A stretch of 64,000 nt of DNA. It comes from an uncultured Nitrospirota bacterium (lineage in GTDB: Bacteria > Nitrospirota > Nitrospiria > JACRHA01). The stretch covers positions 9,294 to 73,293 of the forward strand of contig CAYZUL010000003.1 of assembly GCA_964481895.1 (NCBI GenBank). Direction: 5' to 3'. Made by a program: the position numbers and the translations under genes. This document shows positions 8,879 through 64,000 of the stretch, in pieces. The notes under the pieces are model-generated. The model was not told where the DNA came from. It did not search any database and saw nothing but the letters and a program-made list of their open reading frames with translations. How positions within the stretch are numbered: position 1 is the stretch's first letter; each line of letters begins with the position of its first letter.

Positions 8879-10438
8879 TCAGGAGGGGATTTGACCTTGC
8901 CTGTTTTCGATATACTCCCTGATGCCTTCTAAGAGGGCCTCTGCTATCTTCTGTCTGTAATCATCCTTTCTGAGAAGAGCTTCCTCATAGGGGTTGCTGA
9001 TAAATGAGACCTCAGCTAAGATACTGGGCATATCTGTATGTATAAGGACATAGAATGGCGCCTTCTTCACCCCGAGTTTTACTATATTATACCTCTTATC
9101 CAAAATCCCTGAGAAGGATTCCATTGTAAGGTGGGCGAATTCGAGCGACATTTCTGTGGTAAAATCCTTTGCAAGCTCCTTTAGTATTGCCTGGAGATAG
9201 TTTACATCCTCTTCCGATGTAGAGTTCTCTCTGGCTGCAGTAGCCAGTGCCCTTTTGTCAGAGGGGGCACCCAGGAGATAGACTTCAACACCCCTTGTAT
9301 TTTTCTTAGGGCTTGAATTTGCATGGATAGAAACAAATAGCTCCCCGTTGCTTCCATTTGCCAGCCGGCTTCTTTCGTCTAATGGGATAAATACATCTGT
9401 ATCCCTCGTCATGATGACCCTCTTCCCCATTTTCCTGATAATCATATCCCTTAGTCTAAGCCCGATATCCAGGACCACCTCTTTTTCAGTAAGCCCGCTC
9501 TTTCCGATGGCGCCAGGGTCCTTGCCGCCATGCCCTGGGTCTATTATTATTGTATCTATCTTTTGTGCCGGCTGACTGCTGACCATTTTATCTTTCTTTG
9601 AAGGGGGTTCCTCAGTCGGCTGTAGGGTATTCTTCTTGTTTGTATCTTTGCTGAATATATCTATAACGATCCTTGGCGGCGAGGGAAGGGGGAAGGCCGT
9701 GAATTTTTTCAGGCCATCAAACCAGAAGGAGATGGCAATTGCATCAGGCCCCGTCTCTGAGACCTGAACATTTTTTATTGAAGAATCACTGATCGACTCG
9801 ATCTTGTCCTTAAGTTCTTTGCCAACATAAAGGTTATAGAGGTTCAGGGTAACCCTATTTTCAGACGATGCGGCATGGTCGAACCTTACCAGTGTGTCCA
9901 GATCCAGGACAATCCTGGTATATTTTTGATGTGACCAGTATCTGATGTCCCTTGCCTCCGCCCTGCCGTTAACATCAATATCCTTTATCCTTTCATCTCC
10001 TCCATTCTTTTTGGCTATTTCTTCTATCCTGCTTATCTCTGTCCGGCTAAGCTGATATAGCTCTGAGTCGGGATAATCTGTGGTCACTGTAGAGAACAGT
10101 TCTTTTGCCTTTAGGAGATCCGATCTCTTTCCGGAATACCTGTATAGTCCGAAGTAAAGTCCCGCAGTATGGAATATCGATTTTTCTTTAAGTCCGTTCT
10201 CATTGGTTACAACGGAACTGTTAAGGGAGATAAATTTTCTTATGCATTCCTCCCAGTTTTTCCTGTACTTCTGCTTCTTTTTGGATTCTCTCAGGCTGTT
10301 TTCGCATGATGCTGCTGCATTAAACATTGTTTGGGCAGACCTTTTGGAGACCGTTGTTCCTTGTGAGTCCCGGATAATTGGAGAGAGGATGGTTATGATA
10401 ATAAGGCACAGAATTGTTTTTTGAATCATTCTTTTCAT
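8879..10438 (-). CDS. amiC: N-acetylmuramoyl-L-alanine amidase (Amidase_3, AmiC-like) with signal peptide
   Basis: IIIDPGHGGKDPGAIG...FVSIHANS Amidase_3 motifs. I chose the start at ATG 10438 (MKRMIQKTILCLIIITILS signal peptide) rather than the upstream ATG at 10561. Confidence 0.8.
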   Translation of the reverse strand: MKRMIQKTILCLIIITILSPIIRDSQGTTVSKRSAQTMFNAAASCENSLRESKKKQKYRKNWEECIRKFISLNSSVVTNENGLKEKSIFHTAGLYFGLYRYSGKRSDLLKAKELFSTVTTDYPDSELYQLSRTEISRIEEIAKKNGGDERIKDIDVNGRAEARDIRYWSHQKYTRIVLDLDTLVRFDHAASSENRVTLNLYNLYVGKELKDKIESISDSSIKNVQVSETGPDAIAISFWFDGLKKFTAFPLPSPPRIVIDIFSKDTNKKNTLQPTEEPPSKKDKMVSSQPAQKIDTIIIDPGHGGKDPGAIGKSGLTEKEVVLDIGLRLRDMIIRKMGKRVIMTRDTDVFIPLDERSRLANGSNGELFVSIHANSSPKKNTRGVEVYLLGAPSDKRALATAARENSTSEEDVNYLQAILKELAKDFTTEMSLEFAHLTMESFSGILDKRYNIVKLGVKKAPFYVLIHTDMPSILAEVSFISNPYEEALLRKDDYRQKIAEALLEGIREYIENRQGQIPS

Positions 10439-52433: not shown

Positions 52434-53450
52434 ATGCCTGAACTAAGAAAAGACCCCATCAGTCAACGATGGGTAATTATTGCTACTGAACGGAGCAAGC
52501 GTGCAAACCATTATAAATCTTCTGGTCCTCCTCCGCAGGTTGAGCCGAAGTTCTGCCCCTTCTGTTCTGGTAATGAGGATAAGACCCCGCCGGAGATACT
52601 GGCCTACAGGCCTGATGGATCGAGACCGAATACACCGGGATGGCATATAAGGGTTGTGGCGAACAAGTTTCCGGCACTCAGGATCGAGGGTGGATTAAAC
52701 CGGGAAGGGGAGGGGATCTACGACAAGATGAACGGGATAGGGGCCCATGAGGTGATCATTGAAACCCCGGACCATAAACAGACCATGGCAACCATGACAG
52801 ACAAGTATGTCGAGGATATCCTCTGGAGCTTCCGGGACAGGATCCTCGACCTTAAAAAAGACAGACGATTCCGGTTTATCCTCCTCTTTAAAAACCATGG
52901 TGAGGCAGCCGGCGCCAGTGTTGATCATTCCCACTCTCAGCTTATTGCGCTCCCGATTGTCCCAAGGAATGTGATCGATGAGCTTCGGGGGGCCAAGGAT
53001 TACTACGACCAGAAGGAGCGGTGTATCTTCTGTGATATTATCCGGCAGGAGACAGCCTCAAAGGTCCGTCTGGTCAGTGAAAATGATCATTATGTATGCA
53101 TTACCCCCTACGCAGCGCGTTTCCCCTTCGAGACATGGATCTTACCCAAAAAGCATGGCCCTTTTTTTGAGGATTCCCAAAAGTATGAATTCGAGGCCCT
53201 TGCCAGGATACTCTGTGATACCCTAAGACGCCTGGACAAGGCCCTCAATAATCCCCCTTACAATTTTATCATCCATAGTGCACCTGTCAATCAGGCATAT
53301 CATGATGAGGATTACTACCACTGGCACCTGCAGATCATGCCGCGCCTGACCAATATAGCTGGTTTTGAGTGGGGCACAGGTTTTTATATAAATCCTACAC
53401 CTCCTGAGGAGGCAGCGAAATTCCTCCGCGAGCTGGAGCTCAGGGATTAG
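52434..53450 (+). CDS. galT: galactose-1-phosphate uridylyltransferase-like HIT-family nucleotidyltransferase
   Basis: 338 aa. Zn-binding CPFCSGNE and a HxHxQ-type active site (SVDHSHSQL). Placement in a glycogen cluster suggests sugar-1-phosphate nucleotidyl transfer related to glucan metabolism. Confidence 0.75.
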   Translation: MPELRKDPISQRWVIIATERSKRANHYKSSGPPPQVEPKFCPFCSGNEDKTPPEILAYRPDGSRPNTPGWHIRVVANKFPALRIEGGLNREGEGIYDKMNGIGAHEVIIETPDHKQTMATMTDKYVEDILWSFRDRILDLKKDRRFRFILLFKNHGEAAGASVDHSHSQLIALPIVPRNVIDELRGAKDYYDQKERCIFCDIIRQETASKVRLVSENDHYVCITPYAARFPFETWILPKKHGPFFEDSQKYEFEALARILCDTLRRLDKALNNPPYNFIIHSAPVNQAYHDEDYYHWHLQIMPRLTNIAGFEWGTGFYINPTPPEEAAKFLRELELRD

Positions 53451-54922
53451 TGCGAATACTCTACGCCGCATCTGAGGTTACACCCTTTGCCAAGACGGGC
53501 GGCCTGGCTGATGTGGCCGGGGCCCTTCCCGCAGCGCTGGCAGGACTGGGACACGATGTCAAGGTGGTCATGCCGGGGTATAATGGTGTTAAGGATAAAC
53601 CTGGAAGATATACTCCGAGGGGTAATATAAAGGTCAGTCTTGCCGGCGGGGTTTATCCCTTTGATGTAGAGTCGGGCCGTCTGCCTGAAACCGGTGTCGA
53701 GATCCTGTTCCTGTCCAATAGCCGCCTCTTTGACCGGCCAGGACTGTATCAGGAGAAGGGGAAGGATTACCCTGATAACCTGGAGCGGTTTGCGGCCTTC
53801 AGCCGTGCCCTACTTGAGGTCCCGGGATTGTTGGACTGGTATCCGGATGTGATCCATTGCAACGACTGGCAGACTGCATTGATCCCTGCCTACATAAAGG
53901 CCCATTTCCCGGACGACCCCAGGTTTACCGGGACAGGCACCCTCTTTACTGTCCATAATCTCGGCTACCAGGGGCTTTTCCCCGCTTCGGAATATCCAAA
54001 ATTATCCCTCCCCCCTGAATTCTTTACGCCGGAGACCCTTGAATTTTACGGAAAGGTAAATCTCCTCAAGGCAGGTCTTGTGTTTGCCGATATCCTGACT
54101 ACGGTAAGTCCTACATATAGCCATGAGATCCAGACACCCCAGTTTGGGTGCGGCCTGGAGGGGATCCTCCACGAAAGGAGCAATGATCTTTTCGGTATAA
54201 TAAACGGGGTCGATTATCAGCGATGGGATCCGGCCCATGATCCCCACCTGGGACAGCCTTATGATGCCCGGCAGTTGCAGGGCAAACGTCTTTGCAGGAG
54301 GCAACTCCAGAAGGCATCTAAACTGCCAATAAAAAAGGTACCCATCATCGGGATGATCACAAGGCTTACCGAGCAGAAGGGGGTAGACCTGGTAATAGAG
54401 GTGCTCGATGAATTGATGATGCTTGACATCCAGGTAGTCATCCTGGGCGAAGGAGACCCGGATATACACCAGAAACTCAATGAGGCGATGGGCCGTTATC
54501 CCAAAAAGCTTTCAGTCCATATCAACTTTGATGAGTCTCTGGCCCATCTGATCGAGGCCGGATCGGATATTTTTTTAATGCCTTCCCGCTATGAACCATG
54601 CGGCTTAAACCAGTTATACAGTTTAAGGTATGGGACAGTCCCTATTGTCCGGAAGACAGGCGGGCTGGCAGACACCATTATAGATGCCACGCCATCCAAC
54701 ATCGCTGCCGGCAAGGCAAATGGTTTCCTTTTCGAGCATGCGAGTTCCCATGAACTTCTTACAACTGTGAGGCTGGCCATTAACTTGTTTCATGAAACGG
54801 ATCTCTGGCTCCAATTGATCCGAAATGGAATGATGGCAGATTTCTCATGGGGCCGCTCCGCCAGGGAATATGAGAGGCTCTATCGTCTTGCCATTGATAA
54901 GGCGACAGATACTGGAAAGTAA
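53450..54922 (+). CDS. glgA: glycogen synthase (ADP-glucose type)
   Basis: 490 aa. MRILYAASEVTPFAKTGGLADVAGALP N-terminus. GT-B fold. GTG start overlapping the galT-like stop (TAGTG). Confidence 0.9.
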   Translation: MRILYAASEVTPFAKTGGLADVAGALPAALAGLGHDVKVVMPGYNGVKDKPGRYTPRGNIKVSLAGGVYPFDVESGRLPETGVEILFLSNSRLFDRPGLYQEKGKDYPDNLERFAAFSRALLEVPGLLDWYPDVIHCNDWQTALIPAYIKAHFPDDPRFTGTGTLFTVHNLGYQGLFPASEYPKLSLPPEFFTPETLEFYGKVNLLKAGLVFADILTTVSPTYSHEIQTPQFGCGLEGILHERSNDLFGIINGVDYQRWDPAHDPHLGQPYDARQLQGKRLCRRQLQKASKLPIKKVPIIGMITRLTEQKGVDLVIEVLDELMMLDIQVVILGEGDPDIHQKLNEAMGRYPKKLSVHINFDESLAHLIEAGSDIFLMPSRYEPCGLNQLYSLRYGTVPIVRKTGGLADTIIDATPSNIAAGKANGFLFEHASSHELLTTVRLAINLFHETDLWLQLIRNGMMADFSWGRSAREYERLYRLAIDKATDTGK

Positions 54923-55035: not shown

Positions 55036-58000
55036 TTAAGAAATAAAATCAATGGCAACTAGCCTAAGCAATTCAGGCTTGTATGGCGGAATCTCTTTCT
55101 TTTCAAAGGTAAACTTTCCTTCAAGGAATTCTGATAATTCCCTTAAAAGGCCCTTCCAATTTTTATGATTATTCTTATAATCTCTCCAGATAGCCCTTAA
55201 TCCTTGAAGCCTCTTTTTTGTAAGGCTTATGGTTAAAAGCCTTTCCTTTACCTCTTCCCACTTATCTTCAAGCGCTTTTTCTTCAGGAAAGTCCAATATA
55301 TGTTCATCTATTTGCAGATCTATCTCTCTAATGAGATTTGATACAAACTTCTTGCTCCTGTCTTGGCTTAATTCAGAAAATGTGGAATCCACCCCTTCCC
55401 TCTGTTCTGCCTCTTTATAAGTTTCCTCTATTTCTATAATCACCTCTCTATTTACCTCATAGACCCTTTCAAAGAAATCAGGTATCACCCTTTTCTCTTC
55501 AGGAGGACAGGAGATAAAATCTAAGATCCTTGTCTTGTTTGTAATCTTCTCCCCTGTTGAAAGATCATAAAGATACCAGAAATGGAAGTCCTCACCATAT
55601 TTATAATAGAAAAAGATCCCTTTTATATCTCTCTTGAGACCGCTATGAATCCCAAGGGGGATAGATTCAAGCCCTTCAAGCCCCTTTGTCCTAAGATAGT
55701 TTTTCAAAGGCTGATAGAATCTCTCTCCGCCGCCAAAGACATCTCTTTCAAGTTCATCAAATATCATCTTATCCCGCTTCCTAATCCTTCTTATAACGCC
55801 AAATACTTTTGGATTAACCTCTTCTCCAAGAACTGTCTGATCAAGCCCGACTGCATTGTCGATATTCCGTATCTTTTTCTGGAGGATCTCCATAAGGCGC
55901 AAAAGGTCTTCTAGCTCCTCCTCCGGGAAGAAATTGTATACATAGATCTCATCAAAGGTAGAACCTATTCTATCTATTCTGCCTGCCCTCTGGATCATCC
56001 TGGTAGGGTTCCAGTGGAGGTCATAATTGATAAGATACTGGGCCTTTTGAAGGTTCATCCCCTCAGAGAGGACATCCGTGCTCATTAAGATATTAATCTC
56101 CCCCTTCATAAAGTCATCAACAATCCTCGTGCGTCTGGTGGCAGAGGCTACCCTGCCTGAAATCTTCTCTATTCTAATCTTTGAAAATAGGCTGTCTTCG
56201 GATATATTTTTATGGATATAATCATATCCATAACAATATATAATCAAGGGTATCTGCATAATATGTGAATACAACAACCTGTCCTTTTCTGCCCAATTCC
56301 AGGAGTCTCTTCTTTAGCTCCTTAAGCTTTGCATCTGCCTCCGCATCAATCGTCTCGACCATCCTGCCCATTTCATTGAATAGGGCTATATCCTTATCAA
56401 TTTCACCAAAGAGTTCTTCTTTTTTATAATCTTCAAGATTGATATCTTCCAGTTCATCAACAAATTCTTCAGCAGTCTCCTCATCCAGGTTGGAGATATA
56501 TTTATAAAAGGTTTTTTTAGTGAGGAGCTTACCCTTCATTAGATATCCCTTAAATTTCTCCAGAAAGGCCAGATGATTGGAGACGCTCTTTCTAAATGCA
56601 TCAACACTGCTTTCAAGCCTCTTTAGCAGAATGGTCCTGAAGATCCCTTCCAGGGCCACCATCCTGCCCAATGCCATCTCCTCATCTTTGGAAAGCCTCT
56701 CTTTCTTTCTATATTCGAGTACCCGATAATAGGCCATGGTCAATCTTTCACTTATAATCCTGGATATATCTCTATAGAGCCCCTGATAGGCATTATCGAG
56801 CTTGTAATTGATATTCTCCAATATCCTTTTGGGAAAGACGATCTTTTTCCCATAAATCTCTGCGTCAGGATAGTTCTCTCTGACATAATCCCTTGTCCTC
56901 CTGATTGATATCTCGTTCATGAGATCATTTAGGAGTGTAGGATCGCCCTCTTTATCAATATCCTTAAAAAACTTAAAGAGGCTCGGTATCCCCTCCTTGA
57001 GAAAGATATTCTGATCCATAAAGGTGAGCAGCATTATCTGCCAGTAAAGATCCCACAGGGTATTATTAATGGGTGTGGCAGTAAGAAATAAGATATAAGG
57101 CCTCCTCCCATTCCCTCCTATATGATTGATAATGGTAAATAGATTTTCCCAACGATTAGAAAGGGGATTTCTAAAGTTGTGGCTCTCATCTACCACTATC
57201 AGGGAAACCTCATCAAGATTACCTCCTACTGAATGTCTTGCTTTATCCAGAAAATCAAGAGATGCAAGCTCTTCCTGGGATAGGATGCTCTCAGACAGGA
57301 TAAGGTCTTTAACCTCATTTCTCCACATCTCCCTTAATTGGGCAGGGCAGATAATAAGAAACCTCTTTCTTTTATAAAAACCAAACTCCTCTATGATCTT
57401 TTTGGCTATCCATGTCTTACCCAGGCCTACTGCATCTGCTATCATGCAGGCCTTATATTTTTTAAGACGGGTAAAAACCCTCCTTACGGCATCTTCCTGA
57501 AACTCTGCAAGGTTAACCAGTGAGGAAGGTCTGGCATCTTTCTCCTTTTCTTCATCATCAATTTTTAAGTCGTCTTTTTGTAATTCATAGAGGGACTTTA
57601 TATAAACCTCAAAAGGGCTATACTCCTTAGTCCCGAAACGGGAGGAATCAAGGAGTTCAATCAGTCTTGCCTTGAAATCAACCGCCTCATTCCAGAATTT
57701 GTCAAACCAGTTTGTCCGCACATATTGCGCCTCTGACTCAAGAGAAACAGAGTTTAACTCCGTGTTATGCGTAAGACCTGATGGTGTGAAGTTTGATGAG
57801 CCTACTACCACAAGACTATCGAATATATATGCTTTACCATGGAAAAATTCCTTATCGTAGAGCCTGACCTCCACATTATCTTTATTGAGAAACCCTATTA
57901 TCTCCTTGGCCAGGTTATTTTTATCTTTAGAGAGATCAAACCCTTCAACCTCCTCCTTAATCATTTTCAAAAGCAGATCCCCAAGCGTAGTCTCATTTTT

Positions 58001-58195
58001 TATCTCTGGTGCTTTCCCCAGGAGAAGCCGGAATCTTTTGACCCCCTGGATATTCTCTTTTATTAAGGCATAGGCCTGGATATTAAAAAAGGCGGTAGCA
58101 ATATCAAATTGGGTATTTGGTATCTCCTTCAGGACATCATTAAGGAAGGTAGATAACTTTACATCGCTGTTGTCTATGATTTTCTTTGGGATCAT
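55036..58195 (-). pseudogene. PLD-family nuclease (HKD) + SNF2-family helicase fusion gene, disrupted by a frameshift from a 22-bp insertion
   Basis: The N-terminal ~180 aa carry the HKD motif FHGKAYIFDSLVVVGSSNFT. SNF2 motifs follow (ADAVGLGKT, LIVVDESHNFRN). The helicase C-terminal domain (ILMSTDVLSEGMNLQ...QRAGRIDRIGS) continues in another frame, as ORFs 56222-58195 and 55036-56277. Removing the 22 nt between the 8-bp direct repeats ATATAATC (56216-56223 and 56238-56245) restores ...TLDYIHKNISED.... Confidence 0.75.
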
Positions 58196-58340
58196 ATATC
58201 TCCAATCGCCCTATGCTTGACAACCCGATAGCATTGTATCATACTATAAATGAGCGATAAGACCGTTGTGGGTTCCTTTGGCGTTCCCTTCCGTAGGTTG
58301 GCCAAGCCAGAGGGCACGCACCCACAGGGCACGCTCATTT

Positions 58341-58973
58341 TTATGGTAAATAAACGTCATCGTATTTGATCTTACTCTTAAAAACGTCAAACCATTCCTT
58401 ATCATCTTTTTCGTATTTCCGGAAGATCCCCCAGGAAAATAAATCAACTGCCTGAAGAGGCAGGTCTTCATGGGAAAGATGGTGATCTATATCGAGTGGG
58501 ATTCTTGGTTCTATTCTGCCGCTTAACTGACGGATCAGGTAGTCATCGAACTCTCTTATTTCTTTCTTACTCTTGCTCCTGTCTATTACAAGTCCGACTC
58601 TTACCGAGGCATTTGTAAAAGGAATGACATCAAGAACTTTTCTTGCGATAAAGTTGTAAACCCTGTCCTTTTTCTGTGACAAATAATCATATACCCGTCT
58701 TTTGTTGAGCGTGAGGGCGTAAAGCTCGAAGGGGACAGCTTCAACATGCCGGTAAAAATATCTCTTTATTTCTATGGATTGCTTTGACCCTTTCAGTTCA
58801 GTCTGTTGTTTCGGGAATTTACTTTGCAGGGTTCTTTTTACAGCCTTAGCTATTTTCTTCCTGTTTTCCATGTCATGTACCAGCATTACAGTAACCGTAA
58901 AATACTTCGACGGTTTCTTTGCGAAGAAGTCGAACCCCAGGTCGCCGCTTTCATCAAGGTACAAATATAGCAT
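58341..58973 (-). CDS. DUF3800 family protein
   Basis: 210 aa. N-terminal MLYLYLDESGDLGF, the hallmark DUF3800 motif. Confidence 0.6.
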   Translation of the reverse strand: MLYLYLDESGDLGFDFFAKKPSKYFTVTVMLVHDMENRKKIAKAVKRTLQSKFPKQQTELKGSKQSIEIKRYFYRHVEAVPFELYALTLNKRRVYDYLSQKKDRVYNFIARKVLDVIPFTNASVRVGLVIDRSKSKKEIREFDDYLIRQLSGRIEPRIPLDIDHHLSHEDLPLQAVDLFSWGIFRKYEKDDKEWFDVFKSKIKYDDVYLP

Positions 58974-59039
58974 TTATTTCCTATGTTTTATTGGAATACT
59001 CCTTGTAGATATCTCTTAAAAATTCATGACCCCTTGAGC

Positions 59040-61946
59040 CTAAGCAAATTCTCTTTTCCTTAGTTCAACATCTTCATCAGCTCGCTTTTGTTCGTATGTA
59101 ATTCTCCTGTCTAAATAATCTTCATATTTTCTAACAAAGGATTGTATAGTCTTGTTCTTGTCTTTTTCCCAGTCCTGGACTTCTTGCCGTTTGGCTCTAT
59201 AGGCTTCCACAAAACCATACTCACCAATTACGACACCGGTCTGTGACAAGATAATAAACATTTCTTTCATATATTTATCACTGTGATATCTTTTTATAAA
59301 TTCTTTGCACACACCGTACAAAAAAGGCTCTCCCTTATATGCCCTCAAAACTGAAATAACGATCTTTGCATTCTTATCCCCGCCCTTCATAATCAGATTT
59401 ATCATTTCACTCTCAAGTGATTTATCGAAAGCCGGAAAGATTGCCTGCAGGAAATGGCTCGCTTCCCATTGGAACAACCAGTCTTTTTCTGCAAACCAAC
59501 CTACTATTTCTCGGACTACTATATTGGCGTGCTTCTGAAGCGGCTTATTTATTATGTGCAAACTGAACGGTATTGCATCATATCTTTCCCCTTCTTGTTT
59601 ATGTAGACGCTTAGAGACCCGTTTTCTAAAAAACTGTATCAGCCTTTTAGGATACTTCTCAGCAACTGGAGATAGTATTTCCTCGGCGTGATAGTCGATA
59701 TCCGGCGCAAAGATCAAGCTGTCAAGTATAGCCACAAGATCTTTCTCAGTGAGGGCATCGAGAAGTGACGGTTTTCTGAACCATACACCTCTGATCCAAT
59801 GGTAGTTCCTTAATTCAGCCAGTTTCTTGATAGCCCCAACGAAGACCTTCTTAAGCTTCGTGGACTTCGGATATTTCGGATAATTTCGGACAATCGCGCT
59901 TACGATACGGGAAAGAGCATCTGCGTCATTATTCTCACTTGCCCTGTTGTATATACCTTTCAGAAGAGGGGTATCGATTTCCTCCACATATTCAAGCAAA
60001 TCTGCACATATAGATAGTCTCTTATTCTCGCCAATCCACTTTTTCAATATGTCTTTAGCGTTTATGGATGACTCGCCTTTCCATAAACCCGCAAGCATGT
60101 GAATTAAGCAAGGATCAAGCTCTTTTTCATTTTGATAGAGCAACATTAAGGCAAACTCTGTTTTTTGTTTTCCAATTTCGAACAGGAACATATTAAAATA
60201 TTGGAATTCACCCCAACTTACGGGATAATTTTTGATGATAGCTAAAATCCTGCTTTGCCAATCCTCATAAGAGCTCTTATTTATGCTATCAATCAACACT
60301 TGAAGTTTCTCTTTGCGTAACTTCTCTGTTTCTTTAACGTCTAATCCAGCGGCAACCCCATAATCGTAACCGACAAGAATCCTGTATGTTTCGTATTCTT
60401 TATTCGAAGAAATGTTTGACCGAAGGGAATAGGCTTTATCATTCAAGCCCTTTCTATCAAAAAACTGTGACTGTTCTTCAATGTCTTTAATAATCTCATT
60501 TTCCGCTGTGGGCAAAATCTCACTATAAAATTCAATTAGCATATTGGTATTCTCAACGACCATTTGCAGGAGGTTATCTCCGTAGTTCCCTTGGTGTGGT
60601 GTCTGCGACGCATCTTGTAATACTTGTAATACCCTGATCCGCTGGGTTATCTCTTTCATGTCGTGATATAACCGTTTTAGCAGGTTTATAGTACGAGTTC
60701 TGATACTTTTCAACTCATCGTTCACAGGAAGCGGCCCATAATGAAATGTGACAGTCTTGTAGTCAGACATCGAAGTGCCTTCAAAAGAAGGCTTTAGCAA
60801 CTGGCTGGCGATTTCCGTAACAGCCTCGAAATATTCGATAATTTTTGTGTTATTCCACTTCTCCATTTTATCCAAGACAAAAAGCTGTGGGGAATAACCA
60901 ATTTTCTGAATCACATGCAAGTTATAACTCGCAAGCTTACTCAAACCCTCTATAGCTTTCTTCTTTACAGTGGGATTTGAATCGCCTGAGAGCCGAATAA
61001 GCAATTCAAATATTTTTTCGGTATGGAAGTATTTCAATTCACTTAAGATATCCAAACAGATTTTTGCTATGTCAGCATAGTGCTTTCCTTCAAATTCTCC
61101 AAGTGCTGTTTTTATGGGTTCTGGAACGCTCCCTTTTGCATTTTGCAGAGCGCTGTCTACGATGGTGATGATATCGAATTTCTTTGGTGTCTTGTCTCCG
61201 AATTCTTTAACGAATTGATGCAACAGGGAGAGCTGTTCGTACAAGTCATTATTAGACGCTGATTTCATGATCCCTTCTAAGAATCGAACGTCAAATACTG
61301 TCTTGCCTTGTTTAAGTTTCTCGAACTGCTTATAAATGAACTCAAAGCTATAGCTCGCCTGCCTGATGTGATTTTGCATCACATCTGAGAACTGTTTTTT
61401 CAAGGATTCGAACGCAGGCCGGTCAAATACCGATAACTCCTTTTGGGGTTTATATATAATGTCATGTGCCATTTCGGACCATGCATGATAAAGGACGGTC
61501 GTAAGTTGAATCTCGCATCTCAAGCCTGTGAATTTTACGTATTCAGTTAGGTCCAGCCTGTCCTTATTCAGGTGAACAACAAGATGGTGAGCGTTATAGT
61601 CATCAGGGGAGAATTTAGGAACATTCTTGATGACCGAAAACTCTTTGTAGACGTATTCAATAAATCGCCCTATATCACTATCAAGATAAAAAATAACTCT
61701 GCAACCGGCAAGATCGTCCAATTCTGCAAAGGGTATATTTTGCAGTTTTGAGTTGTCTCTAATTTTTCGCTCCAATGATTCTGGGTCTTTTTCGCGTGCG
61801 GATACCACCTGGTAGTGAAATCCGTTATTCTTCAATAAGGTTTCTAATATGAATTTCACCGCGCTTGAAAAATCCTTATAAGTGAGCTGGATCCTTTTAT
61901 ACTGCTCCAGAAGTGATGTAATCTTTTCCTTGCTATCCACCCTCAC
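59040..61946 (-). CDS. RelA/SpoT-like (RSH/toxSAS-type) nucleotidyltransferase domain fused to ~770-aa HEAT/ARM-like alpha-helical repeat region
   Basis: 968 aa. Residues ~40-170 carry REKDPESLERKI (R.K...S..K), DDLAGCRVIFYLD and CEIQLTTVLYHAWSEMAHDIIYK (ExQxRT..xHxWxExxHxxxYK), the (p)ppGpp-synthetase-fold signature. The remainder is helical repeats (e.g. NPTVKKKAIEGLSKLA). Low GC. 4-nt overlap with the upstream methyltransferase gene. Confidence 0.7.
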   Translation of the reverse strand: MRVDSKEKITSLLEQYKRIQLTYKDFSSAVKFILETLLKNNGFHYQVVSAREKDPESLERKIRDNSKLQNIPFAELDDLAGCRVIFYLDSDIGRFIEYVYKEFSVIKNVPKFSPDDYNAHHLVVHLNKDRLDLTEYVKFTGLRCEIQLTTVLYHAWSEMAHDIIYKPQKELSVFDRPAFESLKKQFSDVMQNHIRQASYSFEFIYKQFEKLKQGKTVFDVRFLEGIMKSASNNDLYEQLSLLHQFVKEFGDKTPKKFDIITIVDSALQNAKGSVPEPIKTALGEFEGKHYADIAKICLDILSELKYFHTEKIFELLIRLSGDSNPTVKKKAIEGLSKLASYNLHVIQKIGYSPQLFVLDKMEKWNNTKIIEYFEAVTEIASQLLKPSFEGTSMSDYKTVTFHYGPLPVNDELKSIRTRTINLLKRLYHDMKEITQRIRVLQVLQDASQTPHQGNYGDNLLQMVVENTNMLIEFYSEILPTAENEIIKDIEEQSQFFDRKGLNDKAYSLRSNISSNKEYETYRILVGYDYGVAAGLDVKETEKLRKEKLQVLIDSINKSSYEDWQSRILAIIKNYPVSWGEFQYFNMFLFEIGKQKTEFALMLLYQNEKELDPCLIHMLAGLWKGESSINAKDILKKWIGENKRLSICADLLEYVEEIDTPLLKGIYNRASENNDADALSRIVSAIVRNYPKYPKSTKLKKVFVGAIKKLAELRNYHWIRGVWFRKPSLLDALTEKDLVAILDSLIFAPDIDYHAEEILSPVAEKYPKRLIQFFRKRVSKRLHKQEGERYDAIPFSLHIINKPLQKHANIVVREIVGWFAEKDWLFQWEASHFLQAIFPAFDKSLESEMINLIMKGGDKNAKIVISVLRAYKGEPFLYGVCKEFIKRYHSDKYMKEMFIILSQTGVVIGEYGFVEAYRAKRQEVQDWEKDKNKTIQSFVRKYEDYLDRRITYEQKRADEDVELRKREFA

Positions 61947-64000
61947 ACGCTCCTCGCCTTCTCAAGCCTGTTCTTGACCAGCTCGCATACCGCCCAATAG
62001 ACCTCGTTTCTTTCTTCTTGTGTCAGACCAAGGATGTCGAAGACAATATCATGGAGGGCCTTGCGGTCAGGAAGGGGATTGGGTGTTTGCTCGCGGATGG
62101 GACGGGTCGGGTTGATGCGAAGTTCTTCGAAGACCGAATTAATCCTTCGTTTACCAAGTTCTGAATCTATGAGTTCCTCTATCTTGCTCCTCTGCTTCTT
62201 TTGCAACAGAGACGGTGCAACTATAATCTCAGCCCGCCTCAAATCCTCAACAAGCAATCTTACAGCCCCTCCACCTAATCCCTTTCTTCCAAGAACCTCA
62301 ACAAAAAACGCTGTCAATGTACTATTTAGGAGACCACACAAGATTGTAGATATTGAATCATCTTTTGGGACTATGCCATGAAAGTTATGAGTAAAATAGA
62401 GATTGTGAGTATTGTAATGACATAAATGCCTATCACCTCTAATATCTACCCATAACAATTTTGCATGTTTTAACTCTCTTCTTATTCCTTCGATCAATAT
62501 CAATAGGGTATCAGTATCATTTTCCCCAAAAATAATTTTTTCGATTTCTCTTGGGCTTTTGAGAACGGGCAGCGTTTCATATTTTGCAGAGTAACCTTCA
62601 CTTTTCGGAATCAGGATTTCGCTATTGAGTCCTTTTCGGCTCCATGCAACTGTGATTACCTTGCCAATGTGAGGTTGAATGGCTGTCAATTTATCATTGC
62701 CCTTTTCAAGTATTGTATAGAATATATCCGGCGCCCTCAGATATTTTCCTCCCCATTTGTTCCCCTCATATTTACCGGTGAGGAATTTGTCTTTCAATAA
62801 TGACTGAGATTGCTTCGTCGCTCTGCTCCTCGCAATGACATCCTTTTCTTCTGACTTCTGAGTTTCTTCGGGATACTCCCATCCGTCATCCAGAAGCATC
62901 TCCTGTTTTACCGGATAGACCCTGTAGGTATCTGTTTTCCGAATGGCATCTGCCATTTCTATCTCAAGAAGGTTTTTTACGTTTACAACTTCCTCAAAGG
63001 GCCTTTTGAACATAACAAATCGGGCTGTCTCTTCTAATGCGGGCCATGTACCCTGCACACGACCGACATCTGGCGGCCCGAAGATGGCAATAATCGTATT
63101 CACGTCCGCATGTTCAAAGCTCCTCTTTGCCTCGTTATCATAGACCGCCTTGATTGGGCAGTACTTGAGGAGGAACTCCTGAAGATCCGCTCCATACCCC
63201 ACATCGAGCCATGAATTAGAGGTGATAAAGCAGAATGTGCCCTTGTCATTAAGAAGCGAGAGGCCGTGGAAATAGAAATAGATGTAATAATCGCTTTTTT
63301 TATCAAGCTTCTTTATGAAGGGGTAATGAACCTGTATCGAGCTAAGAAGTTTTTCCTTGTATCCCCTCTTGTCCTCAAGGGTCACCTCTGCCTTGAGCTT
63401 ATTTGGAGGGGCGATCTTCTCCTGCCTTACATATGGCGGATTACCGATGACAATATCAAAGCCCCCCTTATCGCCAAAGATCTCTGCAAAGTCAATGTCC
63501 CAGACAAAGGGTTTTTGTCCTGGCAACTGGATTTTCCTTTTCGTCTCCAGCAAATGTTCGATCTCCTGCCCTTTGGCCTTTATCTGTTCTTCAAAGAGAG
63601 AGGGCGAACGACCGTTCGCCCCTACATCAAACATCTCTATCTGGATTTTTCTTTTTTCGCCTTTTAATGCCTGGATCTCCTTTTGGAGGCTTACAATCTT
63701 CTCATCCAGTATCTCGCCAAAGATCCTTAGCTCTTCCTGTAAAAGGCCCTCAGCGCTCTTAAATTTGCCTGTCGGGTCATTGTTGTAGTATTTCTCCTTC
63801 TCCGCCTTCAGGGATGTAAGCCTTTTCTTGATGGAAGGAGAAAGCTTACTGTCCCTGACATGGAGGTTTACTCCTCCTACCTCTTGTACTAATGAATCTC
63901 CTATCCTGAGCCTTAAGTTGAGGTTTGGAAGAAGTGGGAAGAGCTTTCTCTGCTCATATGGGATATCCTCTTCGATGATTAACTGAAGCCATAGCCTAAG
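61943..64000 (-). CDS. N6-adenine DNA methyltransferase, Eco57I/TaqII/PglX-like gamma class (5' end lies beyond the window)
   Basis: The reading frame stays open on the minus strand from 63634 to the window edge (...RIGDSLV...). DIVIGNPPYV motif IV (D/N-PPY) and a C-terminal TRD-like region (LLNSTLTAFFVEVLGRKGLGGGAVRL...AP) are typical of type IIG/IIL RM and BREX PglX methyltransferases. Confidence 0.75.
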   Translation of the reverse strand, partial: LRLWLQLIIEEDIPYEQRKLFPLLPNLNLRLRIGDSLVQEVGGVNLHVRDSKLSPSIKKRLTSLKAEKEKYYNNDPTGKFKSAEGLLQEELRIFGEILDEKIVSLQKEIQALKGEKRKIQIEMFDVGANGRSPSLFEEQIKAKGQEIEHLLETKRKIQLPGQKPFVWDIDFAEIFGDKGGFDIVIGNPPYVRQEKIAPPNKLKAEVTLEDKRGYKEKLLSSIQVHYPFIKKLDKKSDYYIYFYFHGLSLLNDKGTFCFITSNSWLDVGYGADLQEFLLKYCPIKAVYDNEAKRSFEHADVNTIIAIFGPPDVGRVQGTWPALEETARFVMFKRPFEEVVNVKNLLEIEMADAIRKTDTYRVYPVKQEMLLDDGWEYPEETQKSEEKDVIARSRATKQSQSLLKDKFLTGKYEGNKWGGKYLRAPDIFYTILEKGNDKLTAIQPHIGKVITVAWSRKGLNSEILIPKSEGYSAKYETLPVLKSPREIEKIIFGENDTDTLLILIEGIRRELKHAKLLWVDIRGDRHLCHYNTHNLYFTHNFHGIVPKDDSISTILCGLLNSTLTAFFVEVLGRKGLGGGAVRLLVEDLRRAEIIVAPSLLQKKQRSKIEELIDSELGKRRINSVFEELRINPTRPIREQTPNPLPDRKALHDIVFDILGLTQEERNEVYWAVCELVKNRLEKARSV

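Follow-up and report, generated by a model that had tools for sequence, protein, structure and literature searches.

DSR2 has a SIR2 head, and its HEAT-repeat cavity binds a phage tail tube protein and switches this head on (PMC11263360). In CapRel, a fused RelA/SpoT-homolog (RSH) defence protein, the enzyme is released by a capsid protein (PMC9712102; bioRxiv 10.64898/2026.04.06.716658), and in type I PANGU the GRel toxic small alarmone synthetase (toxSAS) Pag1B makes (pp)pGpp and is activated in trans (bioRxiv 10.64898/2026.04.06.716658). Here we describe a 968-residue protein with an RSH head and a long alpha-helical solenoid, encoded in a 64,000-nt stretch of DNA from an uncultured Nitrospirota bacterium (contig CAYZUL010000003.1, positions 9,294 to 73,293), the whole of which is called the window below. 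The first-pass annotation of the window had placed this gene at 59040-61946, and the list of open reading frames (ORFs) has a minus-strand ORF of 968 codons exactly there. The best reading is a predicted single-chain immune sensor-effector, with a layout like that of DSR2 and a chemistry like that of CapRel.

Like the window protein, DSR2 of Bacillus subtilis is a single chain of ~1000 residues in which an N-terminal toxic enzyme head is followed by a long helical repeat region. DSR2 has a C-terminal domain after its HEAT-repeat region; the two proteins are alike in layout and size, and some solenoids related to that of the window protein are paired with SIR2_2 proteins. The two differ in the head, which is RSH here and not a SIR2 NADase, SIR2_2 being seen only on partners of related solenoids, and the window solenoid showed no homology to the C-terminal sensor of DSR2. 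CapRel SJ46 is a prophage-borne protein of ~340 residues with a small pseudo-zinc-finger antitoxin domain, whereas the window protein has a 748-residue alpha-solenoid and its family is nearly absent from viral collections. RelP and RelQ (the small alarmone synthetases SAS2 and SAS1) are single-domain proteins of ~210-230 residues, in contrast to the 968 residues and appended solenoid found here, and the window family also differs from them in its patchy, mobile distribution.

PANGU resembles the proposed system in using, for abortive infection, an RSH effector that is non-toxic alone and activated by a sensor. It is made of two genes, however, with the nucleoid-associated-protein sensor Pag1A acting in trans and a DNA-mimic C-terminal domain on Pag1B, whereas the window family has its proposed sensor, the solenoid, and its effector in one chain. 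Short prokaryotic Argonaute (pAgo) systems (SPARDA, SPARSA, SPARTA) likewise combine a conserved sensor with alternative DUF4365 or SIR2 heads, fused or operonic (PMC9097488), but the solenoid has no Argonaute or APAZ and implies no guide nucleic acid. From DISARM, BREX and systems resembling restriction-modification (R-M), the RSH gene differs in having no conserved operonic linkage to a methyltransferase and a helicase.

The RSH head and its predicted active site

The Pfam model RelA_SpoT (PF04607) matched residues 51-169 of the window protein (E 1.8e-11, 44.7 bits, cut-off 27), spanning profile positions 2-112 of 113. When PDB sequences were searched with the window protein by phmmer, RelP and RelQ were found. 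A profile built from 68 homologs reached RelP at E 2.9e-11 and RelQ at ~4e-9 in PDB sequences, and at E<=10 it did not reach the chains of CapRel, FaRel2 or Tas1. In the AlphaFold2 model, the RSH fold took up about residues 1-175 together with a long helix at residues 176-218. The synthetase domain and the motif set named by the first-pass annotation are present, in a domain somewhat larger than the ~130 residues it had proposed. The isolated head (residues 1-220) was modelled with a predicted local distance difference test score (pLDDT) of 91.7, and the top 25 Foldseek matches of this model were all SAS1 or SAS2, with Rel and CapRel coming after them. The head superimposed on solved RSH synthetase domains, which goes beyond mere likeness to Pol-beta-like nucleotidyltransferases. 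These structural matches spoke against a generic Pol-beta nucleotidyltransferase, an alternative that the first-pass annotation had raised.

Alignment with RelQ paired its residues R46, K48, K56, D72, R77, Y116, H120, E139 and Q141 with R51, K53, K61, D78, R83, Y117, H121, E145 and Q147 of the head. Each of these nine catalytic or ATP-binding columns is conserved in 62-68 of the 68 homologs, and the catalytic residues implied by the earlier assignment are in place. R51 is kept in 67 homologs, K53 in all 68 and K61 in 62, while the Mg-binding Asp (D78) and the adenine-stacking Arg (R83) are both invariant (68/68 each). Y117 and H121 are each found in 67/68, the catalytic Glu (E145) in 67/68 and Q147 in 68/68. 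Y117 is equivalent to the acceptor-stacking Tyr, which is Y155 in CapRel, where this role has been described (bioRxiv 10.64898/2026.04.06.716658). Across the family, Thr149 (67/68 homologs) stands where canonical EIQIRT has its Arg, giving EIQLTT, and the G-loop reads S-x-D-x-Y-N-A throughout the family, in contrast to the K-x-N-G-Y of Rel/RelP-type (p)ppGpp synthetases. Because both motifs are altered, the alignments suggest that the acceptor site may be unlike that of classical (p)ppGpp synthetases. The isoelectric point of the head (median 9.0, range 5.3-9.6) was uninformative on whether a tRNA or a nucleotide is the acceptor. The sequence and fold results showed that the N-terminal 220 residues are an RSH pyrophosphokinase whose active site is predicted to be intact.

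The RelQ model of NCBIfam, GTPPhKinYjbM, scored 24.9 bits against a cut-off of 320, and no equivalog match was obtained. The sole PADLOC match of the window protein was the candidate model PDC-S33 (349 positions), confined to the head, with residues 27-157 on model positions 48-175 (E 1.1e-12). Membership of the CapRel/FaRel2/Tas1 subfamily was rejected, as it has no sequence support and these structures rank lower by fold. The comparison with CapRel in the first-pass annotation has to be corrected in this respect, since the head lies nearer to RelP and RelQ by both fold and sequence, and the solenoid is unrelated to the small antitoxin domain of CapRel.

The same RSH clade was also seen in shorter proteins, one of 378 residues (locus L089:436-1572, Klebsiella pneumoniae plasmid pZZW20-3.5K) and one of 486 residues (L090:2926-4386, Ralstonia megaplasmid). 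They matched PDC-S33 at E 1.7e-15 and 1.6e-15, respectively, the latter over model positions 41-243. One of the two is the largest of four annotated coding sequences on a 3.5-kb ColE1-type plasmid. Stand-alone RSH heads of ~215 residues were found in loci L057-L068, without a consistent partner gene.

The HEAT-like solenoid and its other heads

The window protein was modelled by AlphaFold2 with an alignment of 68 sequences, giving a pLDDT of 90.9 and a predicted template modelling score (pTM) of 0.75. In this model, residues 221-968 form ~40 paired helices and two small beta hairpins, and Foldseek against the PDB matched the solenoid to MMS19, CAND1, karyopherin-beta2, CRM1 and SF3B1 (E 4e-7 to 5e-5). 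The helical repeat tail of ~770 residues foreseen by the first-pass annotation was thus recovered as 748 residues of paired helices with HEAT/ARM matches. None of the Pfam, NCBIfam or PADLOC v2 models matched residues 221-968. Homology of the solenoid to DSR2 or to any named family was rejected, as the profile search of PDB sequences returned noise and the fold matches are those of generic HEAT/ARM proteins. Mean pairwise identity was 0.46 in the solenoid and 0.53 in the head. The ratio dN/dS, computed against homologs of 76-81% identity, was 0.06-0.08 in the head and 0.16-0.18 in the solenoid; therefore, purifying selection acts along the entire 968-residue protein. These models and comparisons showed that the C-terminal 750 residues are predicted to fold as a conserved HEAT-like solenoid. 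Its best-conserved patch, residues 901-930, contains SQTGVVxGEYGFVEAY, and by the consensus lines of the alignments TGVVxGE(Y/F)GF is kept in all three of the architecture classes described below.

The solenoid alone (residues 221-968) was then searched by phmmer against 1.84 billion cluster representatives at a threshold of E<=1e-3, and 1180 representatives were matched. Among 261 proteins, three architectures were distinguished. Class A is the RSH-solenoid protein of ~970 residues. Class B proteins have ~1030-1086 residues, with ~285 N-terminal residues ahead of the solenoid, and class C proteins of ~790-810 residues consist of the solenoid and ~30 N-terminal residues. The class B N-terminus was identified as Pfam DUF4365, which we take to be a PD-(D/E)xK nuclease, in 23 of 26 members. 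These DUF4365 heads also matched the PADLOC model of the pAgo-associated restriction endonuclease. In short-pAgo systems, DUF4365 is among the domains fused to APAZ, and the heads there are predicted nucleases (PMC9097488). In class B (P0122, P0128, P0131 and 23 further representatives), D45 and Q65 are invariant and K67 nearly so, and these residues may form a D...QxK nuclease motif.

Class C solenoids come with a partner gene. On annotated plasmids of Legionella adelaidensis (plasmid 9) and Pseudanabaena galeata (pPg_05), a gap of 2 nt separates the class C gene from a gene for a 'PIN domain-containing protein' upstream of it. A metagenome scan yielded 80 class C loci, of which 69 had enough upstream DNA to be scored; an abutting same-strand ORF was present upstream at 68 of these 69, with gaps mostly from -4 to +4 nt, and at 63 it came from one family. 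When 43 partner proteins were scanned, 37 had a PIN_12 head and 4 a SIR2_2 head (best E 1e-27), the SIR2 version matching the SIR2 models of ThsA and LmuA. No PADLOC model matched the class C solenoid or its PIN partner. The two-gene operon, a PIN_12 or SIR2_2 protein of 310-400 residues followed within a few nt by the ~800-residue solenoid, was seen at L086:4670-8091, L087:4643-8094 and L092-L171. The PIN and SIR2 partners have a common C-terminal module of ~87 residues, and a weaker hint than the rest comes from its resemblance to the DUF4365-solenoid linker of class B (hhalign probability 86%, E 5e-6).

Class B solenoids reach up to 49% identity to those of class A, whereas identity between the remotest members within class A is only 18-27%, and a rough neighbour-joining tree places class B solenoids in among those of class A. 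Judged from the sequences, the heads have therefore been swapped repeatedly on the solenoid; the 14 head changes on this tree are to be read qualitatively, as the count is inflated by truncated metagenomic proteins. These results showed that one solenoid is combined with three other predicted toxic heads, a DUF4365 nuclease in cis and a PIN_12 RNase or a SIR2_2 NADase on an abutting partner.

Distribution and genomic context

More than 200 full-length homologs (~970 aa) of the window protein were found, and an identical protein also exists (P0001). A scan of one genome per species gave 69 loci with the full-length family. Bacterial carriers include Nitrospirae, Thermodesulfovibrionia, many lineages of the candidate phyla radiation (CPR), Legionella parisiensis, Bacillus, Gottfriedia, Paraburkholderia, Polaromonas, sphingomonads and Poribacteria, and archaeal carriers include Promethearchaeota (Asgard), Thermoplasmata, Methanosarcinales and Bathyarchaeota. 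Among the carriers, Legionella parisiensis PF-209-C-C2, Bacillus sp. AFS088145, Gottfriedia sp. and Paraburkholderia sediminicola LMG 24238 are cultured. At 40-51% identity, homologs are present in Nitrospirae, CPR, Legionella, Bacillus, Asgard, Thermoplasmata and Methanosarcinales, and in a group of 938-residue proteins of Bacilli and Tenericutes the homology extends from end to end (hhalign 99.9%). Full-length homologs are also carried by plasmids. In viral collections the family was nearly absent, with one partial match in IMG/VR and one partial RSH-only match in an 8-kb Vibrio element; on this basis a phage origin was rejected.

All-against-all clustering of 1177 flanking ORFs revealed no conserved neighbour, the largest cluster being present in 9 of 77 loci. 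The gene for a 91%-identical homolog has toxin-antitoxin pairs on both sides, HigB/HTH-M78 on one and DUF433/DUF5615 on the other, a 76% homolog adjoins BrnT, and a 61% homolog adjoins a PIN gene. Other members were found beside an EcoRI-type methylase and GmrSD, McrBC and an integrase, LexA-fused methylases and a resolvase, VapC/Phd with insertion sequence elements and a large SIR2 protein, or, on a conjugative plasmid, imuA-imuB-dnaE2. For 44 members, the 136 proteins encoded no more than two genes away were assigned to Pfam families, and the most frequent were four families of DNA methylases, then phage integrases and DnaE2/ImuB. Such variable contexts without a shared neighbour are the signature of a variable defence, toxin-antitoxin (TA) or mobile-element island and not of a fixed operon partner. 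By sequence comparison, these results showed the RSH-solenoid gene to be a solo cassette, which would move alone between distant lineages into islands of these kinds.

Several family members adjoin the imuA-imuB-dnaE2 mutagenesis cassette (L088:1-5347 and other RSH-solenoid loci); DNA_pol3_alpha was seen 3 times and IMS 2 times among flanking proteins. On Rhizobium rhizogenes pC6.5d (L091:5752-9684), a 1310-residue RSH-solenoid variant is annotated as 'poly-gamma-glutamate hydrolase family protein'. Its tblastn match to query residues 23-967 stops at 8952, with ~240 C-terminal residues beyond, and a large SIR2 family gene lies ~2 kb downstream.

The features of the gene and of the methyltransferase ORF upstream of it are listed in Table 1. 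This ORF runs without an in-frame stop to the window end and is therefore incomplete in the window. Its TGA stop and the GTG start of the RSH gene overlap by 4 nt as GTGA. The tight coupling to a methyltransferase emphasised by the first-pass annotation is thus real locally, but it is incidental and not conserved across the family. A perfect in-frame 20-nt palindrome, GGGCGAACGGTCGTTCGCCC (VGANGRSPS), lies at 63602-63621 inside the methyltransferase ORF; it is unique in the window and looks like a small inserted hairpin element.

On the other side of the RSH gene, a PLD-SNF2 helicase (55036-58195, minus strand) with DrmD, DpdE and HKD+Snf2 matches is split into ORFs of 657 and 413 residues by a 22-nt insertion, GATTATATATTGTTATGGATAT, at 56224-56245. 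When the insertion was removed in silico, a single 1045-residue ORF was obtained, which aligned to the intact 1072-residue helicase of L002 (E 1e-63). An independently made Logan assembly of this locus (L001) shows the split as well, and the window helicase is probably a pseudogene. A DUF3800 gene (58341-58973, minus strand, Pfam E 4e-12, no PADLOC hit) stands between the RSH gene and the helicase and is RSH-adjacent only here. Eco57I-type methylase and PLD-SNF2 helicase flank the RSH gene both in the window (55036-64000) and at L002:2513-9937, where a VapBC pair is inserted. The window methylase and helicase match the DrmMI and DrmD models. Such a pair might form a DISARM-like module of two genes, DrmMI and a fusion of DrmC and DrmD; neither DrmA nor DrmB is seen nearby. 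In the 77 loci, tblastn recovered the window methylase, DUF3800 gene and helicase from this contig and otherwise just from L002/L003, where identity was 23-38%. Functional coupling of the RSH gene to the three was rejected on this search and on the clustering of flanking ORFs.

The GC content is 0.40-0.44 from ~54.9 kb to 64 kb and 0.45-0.53 elsewhere in the window. It falls directly after the glycogen synthase gene (53450-54922), and this drop is taken as the boundary of an acquired island. The window has no tRNA gene anywhere, and a promoter and terminator scan of 54.8-64 kb gave counts only ~1-2 sd over shuffles, which is not convincing.

Table 1. Positions in the window of the RSH-solenoid gene, its domains and motifs, and the adjoining methyltransferase ORF
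Feature	Position	Strand	Details
RSH-solenoid gene, complete	59040..61946	-	968 aa, GTG start, stop 59040-59042; ORF list
RSH synthetase domain, residues 1-175	61422..61946	-	
REKDPESLERK, residues 51-61, RxKxxxSxxxK ATP-phosphate-binding motif	61764..61796	-	HMMER alignments to RelP and RelQ; coordinates checked
DDLAGCRVIFY, residues 77-87	61686..61718	-	Alignments to RelP and RelQ
G-loop YNAHH, residues 117-121	61584..61598	-	Alignments to RelP and RelQ
CEIQLTT, residues 144-150	61497..61517	-	RelQ alignment and columns of 68 homologs
Long connecting helix from RSH core to solenoid, residues 176-220	61287..61421	-	AlphaFold2 helix H176-217; H176-218 in a second model
HEAT/ARM-like alpha-solenoid, residues 221-968, proposed sensor/regulatory module	59043..61286	-	
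Best-conserved solenoid patch, residues 901-930, SQTGVVIGEYGFVEAY...	59157..59246	-	Lowest entropy outside the catalytic core
Eco57I/TaqI_C-type N6-adenine DNA methyltransferase ORF, 3' part	61943..64000	-	Pfam; context, not part of the system

Proposed immune role and alternative explanations

Taken together, the 968-residue protein is, in our judgement, probably a self-contained prokaryotic innate-immune sensor-effector of the abortive-infection kind. The related solenoids with nuclease, PIN or SIR2 heads make an anti-phage sensor-effector that works by itself the most likely reading, and not a partner of the methylase. The solenoid would be the sensing and regulatory module. As no antitoxin gene accompanies the RSH-solenoid gene, the head must be inactive at rest, and in the uninfected cell it would be the solenoid that holds it so. 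An infection cue, most likely a protein ligand by analogy with DSR2 and CapRel, would bind the solenoid and release or allosterically activate the head, which would then use ATP to pyrophosphorylate either a nucleotide or the CCA end of tRNA and so arrest growth. The overall interpretation given in the first-pass annotation is supported, with corrections on the methyltransferase coupling and on kinship with CapRel.

Several observations weigh against an immune role. The nearest relatives of the head are RelP and RelQ, housekeeping enzymes that are not toxic, and not a known toxSAS, CapRel, FaRel2 and Tas1 being missing from the profile matches. Conservation of the solenoid almost equals that of the enzyme (mean pairwise identity 46% and 53%, respectively) and, unlike many sensors of phage proteins, the solenoid as a domain gave no sign of diversifying selection. 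Phage genomes and viral contigs essentially lack the family, in contrast to the prophage-borne CapRel, and its association with defence islands was judged from ~55 neighbourhoods without a genome-wide background.

Some of these points would suit a regulated small alarmone synthetase of stress signalling, in which the solenoid is a scaffold that ties (p)ppGpp synthesis to a cue from the ribosome, metabolism or envelope, and not to phage. In its favour, the closest relatives by sequence and fold are RelP and RelQ, the solenoid is conserved and not diversifying, and neither an antitoxin nor an immunity gene is found next to the gene. We regard such a role as unlikely, since the distribution is patchy, crosses domains with 40-50% identity between bacterial and archaeal members and includes plasmids, the gene lies in TA, R-M or mobile-element islands, the NCBIfam YjbM score is far below its cut-off, and the G-loop and EIQIRT motifs are altered; moreover, versions of the solenoid with DUF4365, PIN or SIR2 would make no sense for signalling. 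A fused TA or addiction module that stabilises mobile elements is quite improbable too. Here, the solenoid would act as an antitoxin in cis, the RSH toxin would be set free once the solenoid is lost or degraded, and there would be no dedicated phage sensing. A solo gene on plasmids and integrative elements beside classical TA pairs agrees with this, as does the finding that toxSAS are bona fide TA toxins (PMC7229694). However, a highly conserved solenoid of 750 residues far exceeds any known antitoxin in size, an uncleaved fusion cannot give post-segregational killing by differential stability, and the PIN/SIR2 and solenoid operons and the nuclease fusions look more like sensor-effector immunity than TA.

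The surroundings of the gene in the window invite a further explanation, namely that its product is an accessory subunit of the flanking methylase and PLD-SNF2 helicase in a DISARM- or BREX-like restriction module. Besides the 4-nt overlap and the DrmMI and DrmD matches, it is favoured by a 77%-identical homolog whose gene likewise comes after an Eco57I-type methylase and has a PLD-SNF2 helicase in its vicinity. This explanation is largely refuted already, and we consider it very improbable. Such a context was found in just 2 of ~55 independent neighbourhoods; homologs of 91%, 81%, 76% and 61% identity have no methylase or helicase alongside; the methylases and helicases of the two loci are only 23-38% identical, whereas the RSH proteins are 77% identical; the window helicase is broken by the 22-nt insertion; and the methylases near other members come from four Pfam families. 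It is hardly credible that the protein is an interbacterial toxin that is secreted or delivered by contact, in the manner of the (p)ppApp synthetase Tas1 of the type VI secretion system or MuF-fused pyrophosphokinases, given that it has no PAAR, Rhs, LXG or MuF trafficking domain and no adjacent immunity gene, that its toxin domain is N-terminal and not C-terminal, and that the family is present in archaea and CPR bacteria.

A broader proposal about the solenoid, which we put forward more tentatively than the immune role of the window protein and hold to be somewhat short of probable, is that it represents an undescribed innate-immune sensor family across bacteria, CPR and archaea, including Asgard. 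It would work with at least four interchangeable heads (RSH, DUF4365, PIN and SIR2) and without an NTPase switch, and a strongly conserved C-terminal pocket with TGVVxGEYGF would read a conserved infection cue. The RSH version would be the third independent immune recruitment of alarmone/tRNA pyrophosphorylation, after CapRel and PANGU. Databases label members just as 'RelA/SpoT domain-containing protein' or 'hypothetical'. Full-text literature searches returned no description of an RSH-HEAT solenoid architecture and nothing on PDC-S33, and for DUF4365 with HEAT they returned pAgo papers only.

For this locus, the analysis corrects a tempting misreading, in that the adjacent methylase and helicase are not functional partners of the RSH-solenoid gene. 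If the immune reading is true, the gene would represent a compact one-gene defence architecture and extend RSH-based immunity beyond CapRel and PANGU, and an NTPase-free solenoid sensor would be re-used with four suicide effectors across bacteria, CPR and archaea. The head-swapped families would be useful experimentally, as one trigger could be read through different chemistries. That the solenoid is so unusually conserved for a sensor may speak for a conserved cue over a rapidly evolving phage epitope. Such a cue could be a host-guarding signal and would then bear more generally on how cells detect infection.

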